64,000 bases of DNA from an uncultured Candidatus Woesearchaeota archaeon. Its GTDB lineage: Archaea > Nanobdellota > Nanobdellia > Woesearchaeales > UBA525. A model generated the notes under the pieces. It had not been told where the DNA came from. It did not search any database and was given only the letters and a program-made list of their open reading frames with translations. This document shows positions 423 to 61,936 of the stretch, piece by piece. The first letter of the stretch is position 1. The number at the start of each line of letters is the position of its first letter. The stretch spans positions 2,821-66,820 of the forward strand of contig CAVRUV010000022.1 of assembly GCA_963724455.1 (NCBI GenBank). The letters are read 5' to 3'. A program made the translations under genes and the position numbers.

Positions 423-1406
423 ATGTATGAATATATTTACGTAACTCTGCTAATGTTCGTAGGTCTTATTGCTCTAAGCAAGGGTTCAGACTGGCTTACT
501 GATAGTATTATTCCGCTAGCAAAAAAATTAGGAACATCTTATTCGGCAGTAGGCATCTTGCTTGTAAGTATCTTAGTTAGTCTGCCGGAAATACTTGTTG
601 CGCTTGTCGCAACTTGGTTGGGTCATCCAGTAATAGGACTTGGTGTTATATTTGGTAGTATCTTGTGCAATATTGGCATGATGGCCGGGCTTAATGGATT
701 CATCAAGCCATTGCATGTAGACCGTTCCATCATTGTACGCGATGGCGTGTTTAGTGTTGTTTTTGCAGTAGTAGTAATGGCGATATCATATGACGGAACA
801 ATTTCTCGTTTTGAAGGCGTTGCATTACTCTTATTGTTCATCCCCTATATTATCACAGTATGGGAAGATGAAAAACAAAAAAGCCAAGAGTCAAAAGAAA
901 AAGAGCTTGAAACAACAGTAATAGAACTCGACATGATTGGTTTGCAGTTTGGTAAAATGCGCGCAGGCATACTGACTTTTGTTCTCGGTGGAGCATTATT
1001 GCTTGTTGGTTCAGAATTATTCACCGAAAGCTTGACGAGAATCGCACAGTTCTCAGGAATATCTGATCTTGTCATCGGTCTTACTCTTGGTGCAATCGGT
1101 CCATCAATTCCTAACATAATTGCAGCATACAAAGCAGGACAGCGTGGCATGGATGGGGTAGTTATTAGTGAAACATTCGGAAGCAATATCTTTACACTCT
1201 TAGTAACACTAGGCATTCTCTCAATTGTAGCGCCTATTACTCTTGATCCGCAGTGGATTTCATTTGATATTCCTATCATGGTAGTAATGAGTTTTATGCT
1301 ATTGATATTCTTGATTACAAAACGACGCTTGAGCAAAATAGAAGGGGGTATACTTTTCTTCTCGTATATTGGAATATTAATCTTACAAGTATTGATGTAT
1401 AAATGA
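423..1406 (+). CDS. Na+/Ca2+ exchanger family (CaCA/YrbG-like) membrane protein
   Basis: Polytopic hydrophobic protein with two alpha-repeat-like motifs (VSLPEILVAL; GPSIPNIIAA...GSNIFTLLVTLG) separated by a charged loop, the typical CaCA layout. Confidence 0.8.
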   Translation: MYEYIYVTLLMFVGLIALSKGSDWLTDSIIPLAKKLGTSYSAVGILLVSILVSLPEILVALVATWLGHPVIGLGVIFGSILCNIGMMAGLNGFIKPLHVDRSIIVRDGVFSVVFAVVVMAISYDGTISRFEGVALLLLFIPYIITVWEDEKQKSQESKEKELETTVIELDMIGLQFGKMRAGILTFVLGGALLLVGSELFTESLTRIAQFSGISDLVIGLTLGAIGPSIPNIIAAYKAGQRGMDGVVISETFGSNIFTLLVTLGILSIVAPITLDPQWISFDIPIMVVMSFMLLIFLITKRRLSKIEGGILFFSYIGILILQVLMYK

Positions 1407-1959: not shown

Positions 1960-2526
1960 TTATTCATTTAAGATTGGTTTCAATTTTTCAAGAAGTAAAC
2001 TAAATTCTGTGTAACCTGCTTTTTTATTGAAATGTCCTGCATTTGGAACAAAATTCAGTGTCACATTTAGATTCTTTGCAAGTTCTTCGCCATTGCCAAG
2101 ATAAACATAGGGATCATTATCAGATTGAAATACTAAAAAATGTTTAGATTTTTTTGTTATAGAGTTCCAGTCAAAAGAAAATCCACTAAAACTATTATCT
2201 CTATCATAATTCAAAATAGGACGAACGCCAATAGGCGTGCCTACAAAAATAGCCGCTTTTACAAAATGTTCTAAATTTTCCAATATGCGAAGAGTAAATA
2301 CTCCGCCTAGACTATGGCCAATAAGTAAGGTATCTTTGTTTATGTGTTGTTCATACTCTTTTAGTACATCAAACCAATCTGTTACTTTTGCAGGAATTAT
2401 TGGTGGTGAAGGAAACTGTGGCACATAAACTTTATAGCCTAATTTTTCTAATTCCATTTTTAACCAAGGAAACCAGTTTTCTTCGGGATATCCCTCAGTT
2501 CCATGAAATATGAACGCGTTCTTCAT
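1960..2526 (-). CDS. Alpha/beta serine hydrolase, YdeN/RBBP9-like
   Basis: MKNAFIFHGTEGYPEENWFPWLK..., nucleophile elbow GHSLGG, C-terminal GHF. The start is more likely the ATG at 2526 than the track start at 2568. Confidence 0.7.
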   Translation of the reverse strand: MKNAFIFHGTEGYPEENWFPWLKMELEKLGYKVYVPQFPSPPIIPAKVTDWFDVLKEYEQHINKDTLLIGHSLGGVFTLRILENLEHFVKAAIFVGTPIGVRPILNYDRDNSFSGFSFDWNSITKKSKHFLVFQSDNDPYVYLGNGEELAKNLNVTLNFVPNAGHFNKKAGYTEFSLLLEKLKPILNE

Positions 2527-2772: not shown

Positions 2773-2887
2773 CGCCGACACTCGGATTTGAACCGAGAAT
2801 CCTTTCGGAGCAGTTACCTCGGGATGCCTCTTTTGAATGTCTCAGAGGTTTCGAGACTGCCGCAATACCGGGTTATGCGATGTCGGC
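2773..2887 (-). tRNA. tRNA-Ser(CGA) with a ~34-nt intron in the anticodon loop
   Basis: Acceptor GCCGACA/TGTCGGC, discriminator G. Anticodon stem GCAGT/ACTGC flanks CTCGAA + insert + A. Long variable arm TCCGAAAGGATT (class II). T-arm CTCGG-TTCAAAT-CCGAG. No encoded CCA. Confidence 0.8.
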
Positions 2888-12393: not shown

Positions 12394-12546
12394 GGAATAC
12401 CTTGGAGTAAATCCTAGATTTTTGAGCGATTTATGCAGCTCAAAAATCCTAAACTCTCTGAGGGACGCGAAGGATTCAAAGAATCCTTGCGCAAGAATTC
12501 AAGTAACTATGTTGAATTCTTTGCGAAGAGAAATTCTCCGTATTCC
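12394..12546 (-). repeat. Structured intergenic element, long form (copy E4, 153 nt)
   Basis: On the minus strand: GGAATAC-GGAG...TCCCTCAGAGAGTTTAG, hairpin GATTTTTGAGC/GCTCAAAAATC with loop TGCATAAATC, then TCTAGGATTTA-CTCC-AAG-GTATTCC. Two extra perfect hairpins are inserted 5' of the TCCCTC box. Confidence 0.75.
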
Positions 12547-20191: not shown

Positions 20192-20746
20192 ATGGTCATA
20201 ATTACATTTGGCGGAACTCCCGGCAGTGGAAAAGGAACAGTTGGCAAATTGTTGGCACAAAGACTTCAATTGCCATATTTTAGCATAGGAGATATCAAAA
20301 GAGAATATGCTAAAGAGCACAAGTTAAATTTAGCCGAGCTTAATGAGAAAAATAAGAATGATCCTGATTTTGATAATACAATTGATGCCTATCAAAGTAA
20401 CTTGCCGAAAAAATATGATTCTTTGATTGTTGACGGTAAGATGTCATTTTATTTTTTCCCAACAAGTTTTAAAATTTTTTTAAGAGTTGATGTTGCTGAA
20501 GCTGCAAGAAGGCTTATTGATGCAAAAAGAGATTCTGAAAAAGTTACTAGTATTGAAGAAGGTATAAAACTTATTAATTCTCGTATGGAGATGGATGATA
20601 CTCGTTATATGAAATTTTATGGAGTTCATTCATATGATGAAAACAATTATGATATCACTATCGATACGACTAATCTAACTCCTGAGCAAGTATTGGATAT
20701 TATCATAGAATATCTTGGCGAACAAGGAGTAAAGGTTGCTGAATAG
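20192..20746 (+). CDS. P-loop nucleotide kinase, archaeal cytidylate-kinase-like
   Basis: MVIITFGGTPGSGKGTVGKLLAQRLQLPYFSIGDI (Walker A, NMP-kinase layout). The track start at 20168 is TTG; the ATG at 20192 is preferred. Confidence 0.6.
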   Translation: MVIITFGGTPGSGKGTVGKLLAQRLQLPYFSIGDIKREYAKEHKLNLAELNEKNKNDPDFDNTIDAYQSNLPKKYDSLIVDGKMSFYFFPTSFKIFLRVDVAEAARRLIDAKRDSEKVTSIEEGIKLINSRMEMDDTRYMKFYGVHSYDENNYDITIDTTNLTPEQVLDIIIEYLGEQGVKVAE

Positions 20747-20767: not shown

Positions 20768-20860
20768 TGCCGCGAAGGTTTGCTCTTCGTCCCTCTGAGA
20801 ATTTAGGAAAAGTCGCTTGCATGAATCAGCGACTTTTCTGGGATTTACTTCAAGGCGGCA
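20768..20860 (+). repeat. Structured intergenic element, short form (copy E1, 93 nt)
   Basis: TGCCGC-GAAG...TCCCTCTGAGAATTTAG, hairpin GAAAAGTCGCT/AGCGACTTTTC (11 bp) with loop TGCATGAATC, then TCTGGGATTTA-CTTC-AAG-GCGGCA. Confidence 0.8.
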
Positions 20861-28197: not shown

Positions 28198-28345
28198 ATT
28201 TCATTTTTTTCTTTTTTTATTCTTTATTATTCTCTATGTTATTGTTAATTCTCTACTATTTTTTATATTATTTTTAGTTCTGCATATTTGATGTAGTTTT
28301 AGGTATTAGTTTCATTAGTTTACTTGTTGAATAGTATTCGTATCT

Positions 28346-28498
28346 GGAACGCCTTGGAGTGGGTCCTGACAACGAGTCGCTGTGAGCTGATTCGAGTCAT
28401 ACGAGAATCCGAAGGAACGAAGTGACGAGATGCGAGCAGGCAAGGACGAGTTGTCAATAGATTCTGCGAGGGACTAAGCAGTATGTTCTGCGCGTTCC
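28346..28498 (-). repeat. Structured intergenic element, long divergent form (copy E5, 153 nt)
   Basis: Minus strand: GGAACGC-GCAG...TCCCTCGCAGAATCTA...GAATCAGC...CTCC-AAG-GCGTTCC. Same closing helix, AAG bulge and TCCCTC box; the apical domain is expanded, closed by TGACAAC/GTTGTCA. Confidence 0.65.
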
Positions 28499-28589
28499 TA
28501 GTAGTTAGTTGTAATTTAGCAAATCACTGTCGATTCATTACATATGATTATTAAGTTGGTTCAAGACACTCTATTGCGAGTGAATCAAT

Positions 28590-29285
28590 ATGGGTGAATC
28601 GATGGATCTTTTCGGCAAAGCATTAACCTCATACTATAAGGGTTCGAAAGAAAAATTCTATTTTGTAGATAAGCAAGGAGTATTGTTCGAGCACCCGCTT
28701 GATTTCTATTTCAGGTCATACTCAAAATTCTCTCGCATAGAAAAGAAGATTATCAATTTGTCCTACGGAGAGATTCTAGATATTGGTTGCGGTACAGGAA
28801 ATATTACACAGTATGTTGCAGGAAAAGGAAATGTTACAGGCATTGATATATCTGCTAATACTATTGCGCTTGCAAAAATGCTTGCAAAAAAATCAGTCGG
28901 ACCAAAAATAAAGGCTAATGCACTTCATTATGCAGTTGCAGATATATTCTCTTATTCTCCATTGAAAAAATTTGATACCATTCTCTTAATGGAGAATAAT
29001 CTCGGGATGGGACAATCAATGCAAGGCGTGCAGAAACTGCTAAGATTATTATCTGGATTTTTGAAAGACGATGGACAGATTTTAACAAATGCGAGAATTA
29101 TCAATACAGAATATTATGAAGCGAGTTTAGCATCTGTGTACGGCAAAGAGCATGGTCCATTTTTTGGCTGGATGAGTTTTAATGAAGCATTTTTCAAAAA
29201 ATTATGCGATGGCGAAAGCTTACGCTCGAATGTTCTTATGAGAACTAAAAATACTTGCTTGTTTAGAATAACAAAAAAATCATAA
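28590..29285 (+). CDS. Class I SAM-dependent methyltransferase
   Basis: Motif I ILDIGCGTGNIT. Confidence 0.7.
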   Translation: MGESMDLFGKALTSYYKGSKEKFYFVDKQGVLFEHPLDFYFRSYSKFSRIEKKIINLSYGEILDIGCGTGNITQYVAGKGNVTGIDISANTIALAKMLAKKSVGPKIKANALHYAVADIFSYSPLKKFDTILLMENNLGMGQSMQGVQKLLRLLSGFLKDDGQILTNARIINTEYYEASLASVYGKEHGPFFGWMSFNEAFFKKLCDGESLRSNVLMRTKNTCLFRITKKS

Positions 29286-29324
29286 AAATAAATAGAGTTA
29301 ATTTAGTGCGATAACTATTTGTCG

Positions 29325-30299
29325 TTACATTCTGTTAGGCATAAAACCGACTCTTTCTAAGACGCGTTTTGTGCTAACTGCTCTATTCAATGTATAAATG
29401 TGTATATCATTTACGCCGTTTGCATAGAGTTCTTCCATTTGTTCTACCATCCAGTCTTCGCCTGCAATTGCACCGCGCTTTTCTAAATCTTTACAAAGCT
29501 TATCGGGTATGGACACATTCATCTTTGCAGGAACGCTGCTCTCTCCACCAGTTTGTCTTGGATGATCGAGGATTTTTAATCCCGGAATGATTGGGATAGT
29601 TACACCATAATCACGAGCCATGGCAATGAATTGCAATATCATTTTTGTGTCAAAGCACATCTGAGTGATTGCAAAGTTTGCACCAGCATCTTGCTTCATC
29701 TTTAGATACTGTATTCCGCATTCAATATTCGGCGCAGCATAATGCCTTTCAGGATATGCCGCAACACCTATGCACAAATCAATCGGTTGAACATCCTCTT
29801 TTGGAGGGTTGAGATATATTTTTCTTCGCATTGCAGCTATTTGTTCAACCATGCCTAGCGAATATTTATGTCCTTGCGGATTTGGTTTGAACATATCTCC
29901 ATAATTTGGGTCTCCTCTGATTAAGAAAATATTTTCTATGCCGACAAAAGGCAGTTGTATGACTGCGCCTTCTGTTTCTAATTGCGTAAAATCCCCGCAG
30001 ATAAAATGCGGCATGACTTCAACATTCAAGTGGTTATATCTTCCCATAAGATGAGCTGCGATAAGATCAGGATTTGCTCTTATCTTTCTAGGATGTAATT
30101 CTTCAATGCCTAATGCATTTCTTGTTCGCTCCATGATCTCTTGGTGATAGGTGACTGAAAGAAATAGAGGTCCATATTTTTTTACTAATTCATCAATTGC
30201 TTCAGAATCTTTTTTTGCATTTGCCCATCTTTGCGGAGGCAGGATTTCTAGAGAGAATCCTCGCTTGTTTGCAGCGATTATGTCGGGGATTCTTACCAT
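29325..30299 (-). CDS. metF: Methylenetetrahydrofolate reductase (MetF/MTHFR family)
   Basis: FSLEILPPQ N-terminal motif, TIM-barrel-sized protein, LFLSVTYH..., conserved acidic/aromatic blocks typical of MetF. Confidence 0.7.
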   Translation of the reverse strand: MVRIPDIIAANKRGFSLEILPPQRWANAKKDSEAIDELVKKYGPLFLSVTYHQEIMERTRNALGIEELHPRKIRANPDLIAAHLMGRYNHLNVEVMPHFICGDFTQLETEGAVIQLPFVGIENIFLIRGDPNYGDMFKPNPQGHKYSLGMVEQIAAMRRKIYLNPPKEDVQPIDLCIGVAAYPERHYAAPNIECGIQYLKMKQDAGANFAITQMCFDTKMILQFIAMARDYGVTIPIIPGLKILDHPRQTGGESSVPAKMNVSIPDKLCKDLEKRGAIAGEDWMVEQMEELYANGVNDIHIYTLNRAVSTKRVLERVGFMPNRM

Positions 30300-30496
30300 C
30301 TATAGAGAGTCTTGATTGCATTTTTAAAGCTTCTTGGAGCGCTTTTAAACTGATTGTGTAGTGTTTTGTGTTGTTGTTTTTGTGTTGTTGTGATATTGTT
30401 GTTTTGTTGTTTTATGAACGTATTTTGCATAATTATTATATACATTAGAACTTAAGCATAGTAGATAGTAACTACAAATACAGCGAGGGGGAAAAC

Positions 30497-30835: not shown

Positions 30836-31003
30836 ATTCCAAGTTTCCTTTTTTCAATTATTCTTACAGAGGTTTTGTAGAGAGTATGATTTAGTTTTTA
30901 GAAAATAGTTTAAAATAGTTTGTTATGTCTAGAAAAGTAGTTTAGGATTTACTAATAGTTCTAGTTTAAGTTTTAATTAATATTAATTTTCTATTAATTT
31001 TTT

Positions 31004-31097
31004 TGCCACGGAGAATTACTGCTCGGTCCCTCGCAGAATTTAGAATTTTATGCCTGCATGAATCGGCATAAAATTTAGGTTTTGCTCCAAGGTGGCA
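31004..31097 (+). repeat. Structured intergenic element, short form (copy E2, 94 nt)
   Basis: TGCCAC-GGAG...TCCCTCGCAGAATTTAG, hairpin AATTTTATGCC/GGCATAAAATT (11 bp) with loop TGCATGAATC, then TTAGGTTTTG-CTCC-AAG-GTGGCA. Confidence 0.8.
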
Positions 31098-51309: not shown

Positions 51310-51401
51310 TGTCGCAGAGGTTTTCTGCTCCCTCATCGCAGGTTTTACGAAAACCATCCTGCATGAATCGGATGGTTTTCTGGTGTTACTCTAAGGCGAC
51401 A
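51310..51401 (+). repeat. Structured intergenic element, short form (copy E3, 92 nt)
   Basis: TGTCGC-AGAG...CTCCCTCATCGCAGGTTTTAC, hairpin GAAAACCATCC/GGATGGTTTTC (11 bp) with loop TGCATGAATC, then TGGTGTTA-CTCT-AAG-GCGACA. Lies between two minus-strand genes. Confidence 0.8.
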
Positions 51402-60367: not shown

Positions 60368-61357
60368 TTACCAATCTGCAGTAAAAGAGGTCTCGTCTTT
60401 TGGGGGCGATGTAGGCGGTGTCGGACTGCTCTCAAAGAGTTTACCTAGCTTTCCTGGAGTTCCCATTACCCAATTAAGAGAATTGCCTACAACGTGTACT
60501 GGTCCTTCGATATGCACTTCTAATGGCGCTGTTGCCACAGTACTTCCACATTTTGCGCTCATTACTCCTGTAATATCAAGGCCGAATGGGATGTTACCTG
60601 GTACGAGCATTGTGTAGTTGAGTGTGTATGGATATTCTGGCCCAAAAGATCCTAATTTGTAATGGCTGCCAAGAATTGGTGCATCTAAATCAAGACTTAT
60701 ATTTACAGAGTCATTGAATCCTGGACTAGCAGTGATAACAATTACATAAGGAATATTCTCTCCTTTAGGAACTGTTATTGTTTGCGGCGTTACACTAATT
60801 GCGCAAAGCGCACTACTTGAACCTAAAGATATGTTTGTATTGTTGCTATCTGCTGCATTATCTGCAGTGAATGTTCCTGTAATTTTTTCATATGTGAATT
60901 GCACATCTTCGTATAATGGAGCGCTCTTATTTTCTTTGTACTCTTTTATATCTACAATATTTGCGTTATCGAGAGTTATTGTATAGATTCCTTTTTTTCC
61001 AGTTTTAATTGGGAAGAAAATTATTACTTTTGTTAATCGCTCATTTGTTGTTATTGCACTGAGTATTTTTGGCGTATTCTTATCGACTTCTTTTGTAATT
61101 GAAAGTGGTGAGTGTTTTATTTTTCCAGTTGATAATCCGGATGATGCGTCCGTTGGAGAAGATATCTGTTGCATGAATTCATCAATCGGAATTGGTGCTG
61201 CGTTATTAGCAATCACTCCCTGTTTAACTGCAGTCATTGTCAATATTGGTTCTTTTAGTGTGTTGCTATCTAGTGATCCTGTATCGGTTTTTGTACATGC
61301 AGTTATACTTATGATAAGAATAAAAAAGAAAAATAAGAAAATTGGAGTTCGGCTCAT
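60368..61357 (-). CDS. Lipoprotein-like Hcp-family domain fused to a C-terminal beta-rich domain
   Basis: Leader MSRTPIFLFFFFILIISITAC. Hcp-like core SSGLSTGKIKHSPLSITKEVDKNTPKILSAITTNERLTKVIIFF, YTITLDNANIVDI, EDVQFTYEKITGTF. A ~150-aa extra domain follows. Confidence 0.7.
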   Translation of the reverse strand: MSRTPIFLFFFFILIISITACTKTDTGSLDSNTLKEPILTMTAVKQGVIANNAAPIPIDEFMQQISSPTDASSGLSTGKIKHSPLSITKEVDKNTPKILSAITTNERLTKVIIFFPIKTGKKGIYTITLDNANIVDIKEYKENKSAPLYEDVQFTYEKITGTFTADNAADSNNTNISLGSSSALCAISVTPQTITVPKGENIPYVIVITASPGFNDSVNISLDLDAPILGSHYKLGSFGPEYPYTLNYTMLVPGNIPFGLDITGVMSAKCGSTVATAPLEVHIEGPVHVVGNSLNWVMGTPGKLGKLFESSPTPPTSPPKDETSFTADW

Positions 61358-61387: not shown

Positions 61388-61936
61388 TTATGCTACCGTT
61401 TCCCAATCATCACTTGCTGTTGTTGCACCAGGTAAGTAATCCCATTGGATTTTTTGGTAAGTAAAACTCACAGTATCGGTTGGTGTTGTGCTTGGTGCAC
61501 CATTTACAGAAGGAAATTCTGTCTTAATATTAGATATGTGTGCGTTAGTTAACGTGACTTTGAAATAATTCTCTTCAGTACCAGTTCCTCCTGATGAAGG
61601 TCTTGTGAATATTAATGTAACAGTAGGCAGATTTTCATTAGTAACAAGAGCTTGGTATAGTTGCGGTGTTGAAACATCGACGGATTTTGTAATGGATAAT
61701 GCTTTATGCTGGCGTTTTCCAGTGGCTAGACCTGAAGCTGCATCTCTTGGAGAATTTATTTCGTGTGAGTATCCATATGCTACAATCTCGCCAGGATGAG
61801 CTTTTGCTGTTGAGCCGCCTTTGAGCTTGCCTTGCTTTTGAGCATTAATTGAGACAAAGATCTCTGCGCTAACTAAGCTCGAGACCATGATTGCGATGAG
61901 AATGAAACTGAATATTTTTAATCCGCTTGTGTTCAT
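61388..61936 (-). CDS. Secreted Hcp-family (T6SS tube protein-like) protein
   Basis: Leader MNTSGLKIFSFILIAIMVSSLVSA. Core GEIVAYGYSHEINSP, ASGLATGKRQHKALSITKSVDVSTPQLYQALVTNENLPTVTLIFTR, NYFKVTLTNAHISNI, DTVSFTYQKIQWDY tracks Hcp1-family blocks. Confidence 0.75.
   Translation of the reverse strand: MNTSGLKIFSFILIAIMVSSLVSAEIFVSINAQKQGKLKGGSTAKAHPGEIVAYGYSHEINSPRDAASGLATGKRQHKALSITKSVDVSTPQLYQALVTNENLPTVTLIFTRPSSGGTGTEENYFKVTLTNAHISNIKTEFPSVNGAPSTTPTDTVSFTYQKIQWDYLPGATTASDDWETVA

Follow-up and report, generated by a model that had tools for sequence, protein, structure and literature searches.

The DNA analysed here (the window) comprises 64,000 nucleotides of contig CAVRUV010000022.1 from an uncultured Candidatus Woesearchaeota archaeon, and the present study deals with a structured intergenic element that occurs in it five times. 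Among the window genes Pfam domains of L15e, L31e, cytidylate kinase and FKBP were recognized, from which the archaeal context of the window is evident. A previous sequence-only reading had placed the copies near a kinase gene, L31e, L15e and surface-protein genes; the first three neighbours are supported by Pfam, whereas the surface-protein neighbours could not be confirmed. ARAGORN and the Rfam model RF00005 together detect five tRNA genes in the window, none of them at an element. Direct inspection of the sequence reveals all five copies where they had been reported, with helices and loops as described (Table 1).

Table 1. Coordinates of the element copies, their parts and other features; positions refer to the window unless a locus is named, and for copies 1-5 the probable RNA strand is given
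Feature	Position	Strand	Description
Copy 1	20768-20860	- (sequence-only reading: +)	Canonical type A, 93 nt; covariance model score 101 bits
Copy 1, outer helix P1	20768-20773 / 20855-20860		6 bp, TGCCGC/GCGGCA
Copy 1, helix P1b	20774-20777 / 20848-20851		4 bp, GAAG/CTTC
Copy 1, bulge	20852-20854		3 nt between P1b and P1; AAG on +, CUU on -
Copy 1, hairpin P2	20783-20799		Stem 20783-20786/20796-20799; 9-nt loop 20787-20795
Copy 1, hairpin P3	20807-20838		11-bp stem 20807-20817/20828-20838; 10-nt loop 20818-20827
Copy 2	31004-31097	-	Type A, 94 nt; L15e stop codon 86 nt away
Copy 3	51310-51401	-	Type A, 92 nt; z-score -4.9 on -
Copy 4	12394-12546	+	Type A plus insertion, 153 nt
Copy 4, insertion	12466-12523		58 nt, two hairpins inside the P2 loop; direct repeat CTTCGC on both sides
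Copy 5	28346-28498	+	Variant (type B-like), 153 nt; frame and P2/L2, P3 exchanged for a long hairpin
Region with copy 5	28199-30496		Between L31e and a conserved gene of 112 amino acids
Methyltransferase gene	28590-29285		Within the insertion with copy 5
MTHFR gene	29325-30299		Within the insertion with copy 5
Type-B module, L012	5242-5354		
Type-B module, L014	13671-13779		
Type-B module, L029	7346-7457		
Region around the L005 copy	2280-2410		Copy with a flanking 15-nt direct repeat
Region around the L010 copy	560-730		Copy with a flanking 9-nt direct repeat
Conserved block near copy 2	30940-30977		38 nt, GTTTAGGATTTACTAATAGTTCTAGTTTAAGTTTTAAT
tRNA-Ser(CGA)	2773-2887	-	36-nt intron after position 37
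C/D-box-like stretch	20631-20690	+	In the 3' part of the cytidylate kinase reading frame
Hcp-domain protein	60368-61357	-	T6SS_HCP, E=4e-18
Hcp-domain protein	61388-61936	-	T6SS_HCP, E=1e-33
Y1_Tnp gene, L032	2562-3005	-	IS200/IS605 TnpA

Four of the copies are canonical representatives of what we denominate type A. Their decamer loop TGCATGAATC is exact at positions 20818, 31055 and 51360 and carries one mismatch at 12428-12437 (-), in full agreement with the sequence-only reading. Without its insertion copy 4 aligns fully with the other copies. The insertion itself consists of two similar hairpins with the arms AAGAATTC and AAGGATTC and looks like the result of a palindrome expansion or a template-switch event. 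A covariance model (R1) was constructed from the four canonical window copies and two sequences that a pattern scan had retrieved from 185,579 species genomes; these two belong to metagenome-assembled genomes of Candidatus Woesearchaeota. Applied to the window R1 finds the four canonical copies with 58-101 bits and no copies beyond those already known. Copy 5 reaches 10.7 bits. Of the five copies grouped in one family before, four are thus canonical, and copy 5 is a variant that retains frame and P2 but possesses a different, longer apical arm.

The family extends well beyond the window. A pattern scan of metagenomes followed by R1 delivered four more canonical copies (E=1e-18 to 1e-30), and sequences in other contigs that were no part of the training set of R1 score in the same range (E=1e-18 to 1e-30). 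In addition, syntenic loci were collected around L15e homologues with 62-93% identity and scanned with R1 as well as with a frame-specific scan. Carriers are L011, L012 (four copies), L014 (two), L015, L029 (three) and L030, and no copy was detected by these two scans in the sampled regions of L028, L031, L032 and L033. Altogether 23 distinct copies are known, 5 in the window and 18 in other contigs, all of Woesearchaeota. The density in carrier loci amounts to 17 copies in 166 kb, i.e. approximately one per 10 kb, and the guanine-plus-cytosine (GC) content of copy-bearing loci ranges from 34 to 68%. Covariance-model scans of the window and the related loci revealed no decayed relics. Among the viral contigs of IMG/VR 12 chance pattern matches were obtained, none of which was upheld by the covariance model; a viral or proviral origin is not supported by these scans.

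The common fold is a Y-shaped three-way junction composed of an outer helix P1, a 3-nt bulge, a second helix P1b and the two arms P2 and P3. Covariation was evaluated for 13 type-A copies from genomes with 34-68% GC. In their alignment 92.4% of the cells assigned to helices are paired, compared with 37-41% if the partners are slid by one to three columns; both sides have changed in 21 of 27 pairs, the observed covariation score is matched by none of 500 shuffles, and RNAalifold on its own recovers P1, P1b, P2 and P3. P1 has a core of 6 bp that can be extended up to 16+7 bp (L010) and covaries in five of its six pairs. The helices had been considered as completely different from copy to copy; they are indeed compensated, but the sequence of the outer helix is not random and follows the pattern YGYYRC/GYRRCR. 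P1b is paired in 100% of the cells and varies on both sides in three of four pairs; its length is exactly 4 bp in 19 of the 23 copies, the other four having 3 bp and one mismatch. The bulge reads AAG in 22 of the 23 copies and AAT in one, and no other feature of the family is as strongly conserved. P2 is a covarying helix of 4 bp (CTGC/GCAG, CTCT/AGAG, CTTC/GAAG, GCTC/GAGC; pair counts GC:6 CG:4 UA:1 and CG:8 UA:2) that lies inside the conserved box TCCCTC..AGA previously assumed to be single-stranded. It closes an invariant 9-nt loop, TCGTCCCTC on the '+' strand corresponding to GAGGGACGA on the '-' strand. P3 always comprises 11 bp in type A, with variation on both sides in 10 of 11 pairs, and its 10-nt loop is invariant save one position (GAUUCAUGCA in the '-' strand form). 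Little or no variation is seen in the two loops (L2, L3) and in the bulge across all type-A copies. The reported near-absence of G.U pairs could be corroborated: they occupy 1 of 325 cells on the strand described originally and 3 of 325 on the opposite one.

A few further observations concern this fold. The third pair of P1b is specific for the genome, with GGCG/CGCC in the four L012 copies, L029 and L030 and GGAG/CUCC in AT-rich genomes, which suggests a concerted change, either via co-evolution with a binding factor or via GC pressure. Pairing of the bulge with the P2 loop (CCUU/GAGG) to form a pseudoknot is unsupported since the bulge is still conserved in copies without that loop. A small open reading frame (ORF) across the element would be possible in L010 alone and is interrupted by a stop in copy 1.

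The universal part of the element is the frame, i.e. outer helix, 3-nt bulge and 4-bp helix (...C|GGNG ... CNCC-AAG-G...), which alone is common to all 23 copies, and the two arms are modular. In L011 another hairpin stands in for P2. In type B, found in copy 5, L012d, L014a and L029b, P3 is exchanged for a longer hairpin with conserved internal loops, which in copy 5 are purine-rich 2x2 loops. A cUUCGg tetraloop is present in L029b. In L012c the entire interior is different, yet this copy occupies the same L15e-proximal site as copy 2.

As regards the genomic setting, every copy is intergenic and located 2-150 nt from a stop codon, and the orientation relative to the neighbouring genes is random (6 vs 7 in tandem gene contexts). 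Counted over five loci, the element is present in 7 of 109 tandem, 4 of 25 convergent and 0 of 22 divergent regions, and these differences are not significant. The avoidance of divergent regions apparent at first sight (0 of 23) likewise lacks significance, because with 22 divergent among 156 regions only about 1.5 would be expected. Unrelated neighbours and random orientation (6 vs 7 in tandem regions) also speak against a riboswitch or ribosomal-protein leader, as had been argued already in the sequence-only reading.

Comparison of orthologous sites gave a mixed picture. The L15e-proximal site is filled in the window, L011 and L012, and the stems there are still paired although change has reached saturation in the adjoining intergenic DNA. 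Because of this pairing within saturated DNA, purifying selection appears to act on each copy. Relatives are not uniform at the other sites compared: L012 and L014 have no copy at the kinase-FKBP site, and at the BofA-L21e site the copies of L015 and L029 have opposite orientations. Copy 5 borders an insertion with methyltransferase and MTHFR genes that is absent from relatives, L31e and the 112-amino-acid gene being adjacent in L012, L014 and L028. A 15-nt direct repeat (AAACTTCAACGACGA) is found on both flanks of the L005 copy. The L010 copy lies within a 7-bp inverted repeat (AGGTTAG/CTAACCT), which is enclosed in turn by a direct repeat of 9 nt (AGCTTCCCA). Both direct repeats look like target-site duplications; significant flanking direct repeats are found in none of the other 21 of the 23 copies. 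Thirteen of the 23 start with TG and end with CA. The 40 window ORFs contain no transposase, integrase, HUH, reverse transcriptase (RT) or EndA domain. A Y1_Tnp gene is encoded in L032, a Woesearchaeota contig with an L15e that is 71% identical, and no element was found in the 10.6 kb of this locus. Some 27 nt from copy 2 we noted a block of 38 nt that is 100% identical in L011, the other intergenic DNA being saturated; it is without Rfam match, and the L011 contig stops there. Elsewhere in the window, two adjacent proteins with T6SS_HCP (Hcp) domains adjoin large FG-GAP and VWC-like proteins, which is unusual for an archaeal genome.

The sequence-only reading had assigned the copies to strands ('+' for copies 1-3, '-' for copies 4-5) that probably are not those of the RNA. 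Folded into the consensus structure, 12 of 13 copies have a lower energy on the opposite strand, on average by 3.2 kcal/mol (Wilcoxon p=0.0007). The minimum free energy likewise is lower on that strand in 17 of 23 copies, most markedly in copy 5 with -50.1 kcal/mol on '+' vs -34.3 on '-'. Shuffle z-scores are better on the opposite strand in all five window copies (copy 1: -3.6 on '-' vs -2.8 on '+'). U.C/C.U mismatches, recurrent at the P3 base of GC-rich copies, turn there into tandem G.A/A.G, three C.A mismatches turn into G.U, and junctions as well as loops are A- and purine-rich. Moreover, TATA-like runs, defined as A/T-only stretches of at least 6 nt centred at -34 to -19 from the first paired base of the respective strand, precede 7 of 14 copies on the opposite strand and 0 of 14 on the original one (Fisher p=0.006; loci with 40-61% GC). 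Examples are TTTATAAA, TTTTTAAATTTA and ATATATT, and in L012a and L012b no promoter of another gene is expected at that place. Because of fold energy, tandem G.A pairs, A-rich junctions and TATA-like runs we regard the opposite strand ('-' for copies 1-3, '+' for copies 4-5) as probably transcribed.

According to our preferred, still tentative interpretation, the copies are small-RNA genes, each transcribed independently from this opposite strand, and the invariant loops and bulge of the RNAs serve for docking a factor in trans. Of the two hypotheses originally offered, a multicopy structured RNA and a DNA-level hairpin, the former is now the better supported. Whereas fold, covariation, modularity, dispersed multicopy occurrence and lack of a match to known families are directly documented, the transcribed strand, independent transcription, the protein partner and any cellular role are inferred. 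Each copy would be a gene for a non-coding RNA of approximately 85-155 nt that folds as a Y, with P1 (6-16 bp), a CUU bulge, the 4-bp P1b and A-rich junction strands; one arm would be the 11-bp P3 with the decaloop GAUUCAUGCA, the other the 4-bp P2 with the loop GAGGGACGA. The helices would be spacers only and therefore could drift in sequence with compensation, whereas both loops and the bulge, together with the G-C pairs that border it, would be held in a fixed geometry and might dock the trans-acting factor. The latter would most likely be a protein dedicated to this RNA, and the product an abundant ribonucleoprotein (RNP). Arms could be swapped or expanded, and new gene copies would arise and move as in the case of other archaeal small-RNA genes. 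The dispersed distribution in random orientation resembles that of tRNA or small RNA (sRNA) genes.

Several observations weigh against this small-RNA family. G.U pairs are scarce, whereas tRNAs encoded at the same loci have about 7% (p=1e-9), and this scarcity would be unusual for an RNA selected purely at the RNA level. A TATA-like run is missing in half of the GC-rich copies, some of the other runs are the promoter of a neighbouring gene (L014b, L015a) that would need to fire bidirectionally, and neither strand is followed by an oligo-T terminator. Two copies with flanking repeats together with positions and orientations that vary among relatives suit mobile DNA equally well. Finally, it is hard to rationalise why there should be around 100 paralogues per Mb without a visible copy-specific single-stranded 'guide'. 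In a more ambitious variant, the copies could represent a third abundant class of RNP RNAs in archaea, comparable in number to the C/D guides (ca. 100 genes per Mb), with a dedicated protein partner and either copy-specific target parts or a catalytic RNA. We consider this distinctly improbable. Candidates for specifying a target would then be, as a long shot, the variable strand of 7-9 nt located 5' of P3 or the helices themselves after unwinding or processing.

The alternative at the level of DNA is a hairpin or cruciform, i.e. a non-autonomous mobile or recombination element reminiscent of repetitive extragenic palindromic (REP) sequences, miniature inverted-repeat transposable elements (MITEs) or attC sites, with loops and bulge being read on folded single-stranded DNA by an HUH, DDE or tyrosine enzyme. 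It would account for stems that are purely Watson-Crick with hardly any G.U (G.T), for an orientation random with respect to transcription and an exclusively extragenic position 2-150 nt from a stop codon, for presence, absence and orientation varying among relatives at the kinase-FKBP and BofA-L21e sites, for the direct repeats flanking the L005 (15 nt) and L010 (9 nt) copies, for TG...CA ends in 13 of 23 copies and for the nested insertion with its short direct repeat in copy 4. It is weakened by the fact that within a genome stem sequences are not shared as they are in REP or MITE families, and that relics are missing and orthologous sites retain intact pairing, which points to purifying selection on each copy. 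Furthermore, the three-way junction, tandem G.A pairs, cUUCGg (L029b), A-rich junctions and strand-asymmetric energy are RNA-like, and flanking repeats are significant in 2 of 23 copies only. A connection with HUH/Y1 enzymes was not detected in the loci covered: none of the 40 window ORFs contains a transposase, integrase, HUH or RT domain, and the L032 locus with its Y1_Tnp gene is devoid of the element. The viral contigs of IMG/VR do not contain the element either. In sum, the DNA-level hypothesis is weakened, retains G.U depletion and two copies with flanking repeats in its favour, and is considered unlikely. Another proposal is a cis element at 3' ends that acts as terminator, insulator or stabiliser against 3' exonucleases in any transcript crossing it, including both transcripts of convergent pairs. 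All copies are situated 2-150 nt from a stop codon, convergent regions are occupied in 4 of 25 cases and tandem ones in 7 of 109, Watson-Crick-only stems can fold on both strands and T-runs adjoin some AT-rich copies. Nevertheless, loops and bulge are strand-asymmetric and conserved whatever the orientation, so that one factor could not read both polarities; convergent enrichment and divergent absence (0 of 22) are not significant, the element is missing at most gene ends, and hairpins are not known to take part in archaeal termination. We judge such a function to be unlikely.

A further alternative returns to the strand described originally, on which the frame can be considered as a relaxed bulge-helix-bulge (BHB) or bulge-helix-loop (BHL) motif that would be cleaved by the endonuclease EndA twice, within the AAG bulge and, 4 bp away, on the opposite strand, the interior of about 75 nt being circularised by RtcB. 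The geometry of a 3-nt bulge, exactly 4 bp and unpaired bases opposite is seen on that strand in 19 of 23 copies and not on the opposite one, the tRNA-Ser intron of the window has the same relaxed form, P1 of L010 attains 16+7 bp and so resembles a processing stem, and several copies begin 2-22 nt past a stop codon of the same strand without a promoter. The strand evidence, however, favours the opposite strand, which has the bulge across from where a BHB requires it, and seven copies in tandem contexts would be antisense to both neighbours. In addition, conservation does not extend to a second bulge and an inner helix (63.6% paired), and AAG with its flanking pairs is conserved in sequence, which EndA does not need, the tRNA intron having GUA and AAA. 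A strict hBHBh' motif had to be rejected since the candidate inner helix of 2 bp is paired in 63.6% of cells and internal loops occur instead in several copies. Such a processing module thus appears rather improbable. The tRNA-Ser(CGA) gene itself was found by Rfam and missed by ARAGORN; its splicing motif has a 3' bulge GUA, 4 bp (CUCG/CGAG), a 3x4 internal loop (AAA/CAUC) and then CCUCU/AGAGG. Due to this relaxed form EndA of this organism should have broad specificity. Very improbable, in our opinion, is a new class of small self-cleaving ribozymes, to which a three-way junction with conserved unpaired nucleotides in many dispersed copies could point. Multiple copies with variable stems and around 25 invariant unpaired nucleotides recall distributions of the hammerhead or twister type, but no ribozyme model of Rfam 15 matches at E<=1-10, the core motifs of the hammerhead are missing, and the arms with their invariant loops are replaceable while the frame is kept.

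DPANN archaea possess tiny genomes with scant non-coding DNA. Carriers of the element devote about 1% of their sequence to it and keep every copy folded. If it is an RNA, it would be among the most abundant unassigned RNA families of any archaeal lineage and would imply an unrecognised RNP or processing pathway in organisms not yet grown alone. If it acts at the level of DNA, it would provide the first case in archaea of a repeat whose recognition depends on structure and not on sequence. Either way a covariance model, a set of defined invariant nucleotides and a strand prediction provide a testable handle, and the RNA annotation of DPANN genomes is incomplete.

As far as comparison with Rfam, IMG/VR and the literature reaches, the element is undescribed, in accordance with the sequence-only reading. 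At gathering threshold Rfam 15 detects only tRNAs in the whole window, and in E-value mode nothing at E<=1 falls on elements of copy 1, six type-A loci and L012, L014 and L029 (all types); none of the copies has an Rfam 15 match at this level. Literature searches yielded neither a description of the element nor a match for its loop sequences. The frame 9-mer CCAAGGCAG also occurs in E. coli 4.5S RNA in a different pairing register, which we take to be a coincidence. When stems were considered as antisense guides to nearby sequence, BLAST against the window yielded nothing above chance.

Among DNA elements, REP sequences including bacterial interspersed mosaic elements (BIMEs) and MITEs are similar in being extragenic palindromes near 3' ends of genes, in both orientations, with nearly pure Watson-Crick stems, with repeats resembling target duplications in some copies and with a presence that varies between relatives. 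Their copies are near-identical, in contrast with those of the element that have only loops, bulge and frame in common, and the element, in the loci covered, is not linked to a RAYT or transposase, has a branched fold and is apparently under purifying selection in each copy. In a test for the near-identity typical of REP sequences and palindrome-associated transposable elements (PATEs), the five window and four L012 copies had no stem sequence in common, and BLAST of each copy against the window matched the conserved boxes only; REP/RAYT or IS200-IS605 PATE were rejected for this reason. P1 could act as terminal inverted repeat of a MITE, but flanking repeats are restricted to 2 of 23 copies and are unequal in length (15 and 9 nt). 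With attC sites of integrons the element shares a structure kept while sequence varies, a hairpin with extrahelical bases, outer boxes that are conserved and a terminal structure that varies (57-141 nt), and the position downstream of ORFs. It differs in its invariant apical loops and in its location among ribosomal-protein and core genes instead of integrase-linked arrays of one orientation. An attC site was discarded because the frame is YGYYRC-GGNG...CNCC-AAG-GYRRCR and not RYYYAAC/GTTRRRY, copies are found on both strands among core genes, and no integrase domain was detected in the window.

Among RNA systems, BHB/BHL motifs share with the element the outer helix, a 3-nt bulge, a helix of exactly 4 bp and unpaired bases opposite, the relaxed form being that of the tRNA-Ser intron of the window. 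Unlike them, the element has a conserved bulge sequence, no conserved second bulge and inner helix, an intergenic position and not one within tRNA or rRNA, and the right handedness only on the strand disfavoured by energy and promoter evidence. tRNA genes are likewise multicopy, dispersed on both strands, similar in size and equipped with invariant loops and compensated copy-specific stems; the element, however, lacks a cloverleaf, a T-loop and an anticodon-like variable loop. Permuted or intron-bearing tRNAs were dismissed as well, since ARAGORN and RF00005 are negative on the elements, no T-loop exists and there is no space for four arms.

A C/D box sRNA is not supported, as C (RUGAUGA) and D (CUGA) boxes are missing on both strands of the alignment and no match to the snoRNA clan falls on the elements. 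A weak C/D-box-like stretch (AUGAUGA ... CUGA) within the cytidylate kinase ORF is probably due to chance (Rfam snoRNA clan E=1.6-6.5). The K-turn or K-loop of H/ACA RNAs is not found either: the loop (UGCAUGAAUC / GAUUCAUGCA) is without the NNN-GA...GA arrangement, and in frame, apical loop and type-B internal loops of both strands G.A/A.G never stand beside a 3-nt bulge. The 3' flanks of either strand have no common ANA (ACA) box. As in the element, the C/D and H/ACA guide families comprise dozens of dispersed genes with short invariant motifs, in either orientation near ends of protein genes, and their gene positions differ between relatives. In contrast with these guides, the variable parts of the element pair with each other and are not exposed, and it is folded as a three-way junction. 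In Nanoarchaeum, C/D sRNA genes that are mobile and dispersed have been described (PMC3491384), and in its behaviour the element finds its nearest analogue in them.

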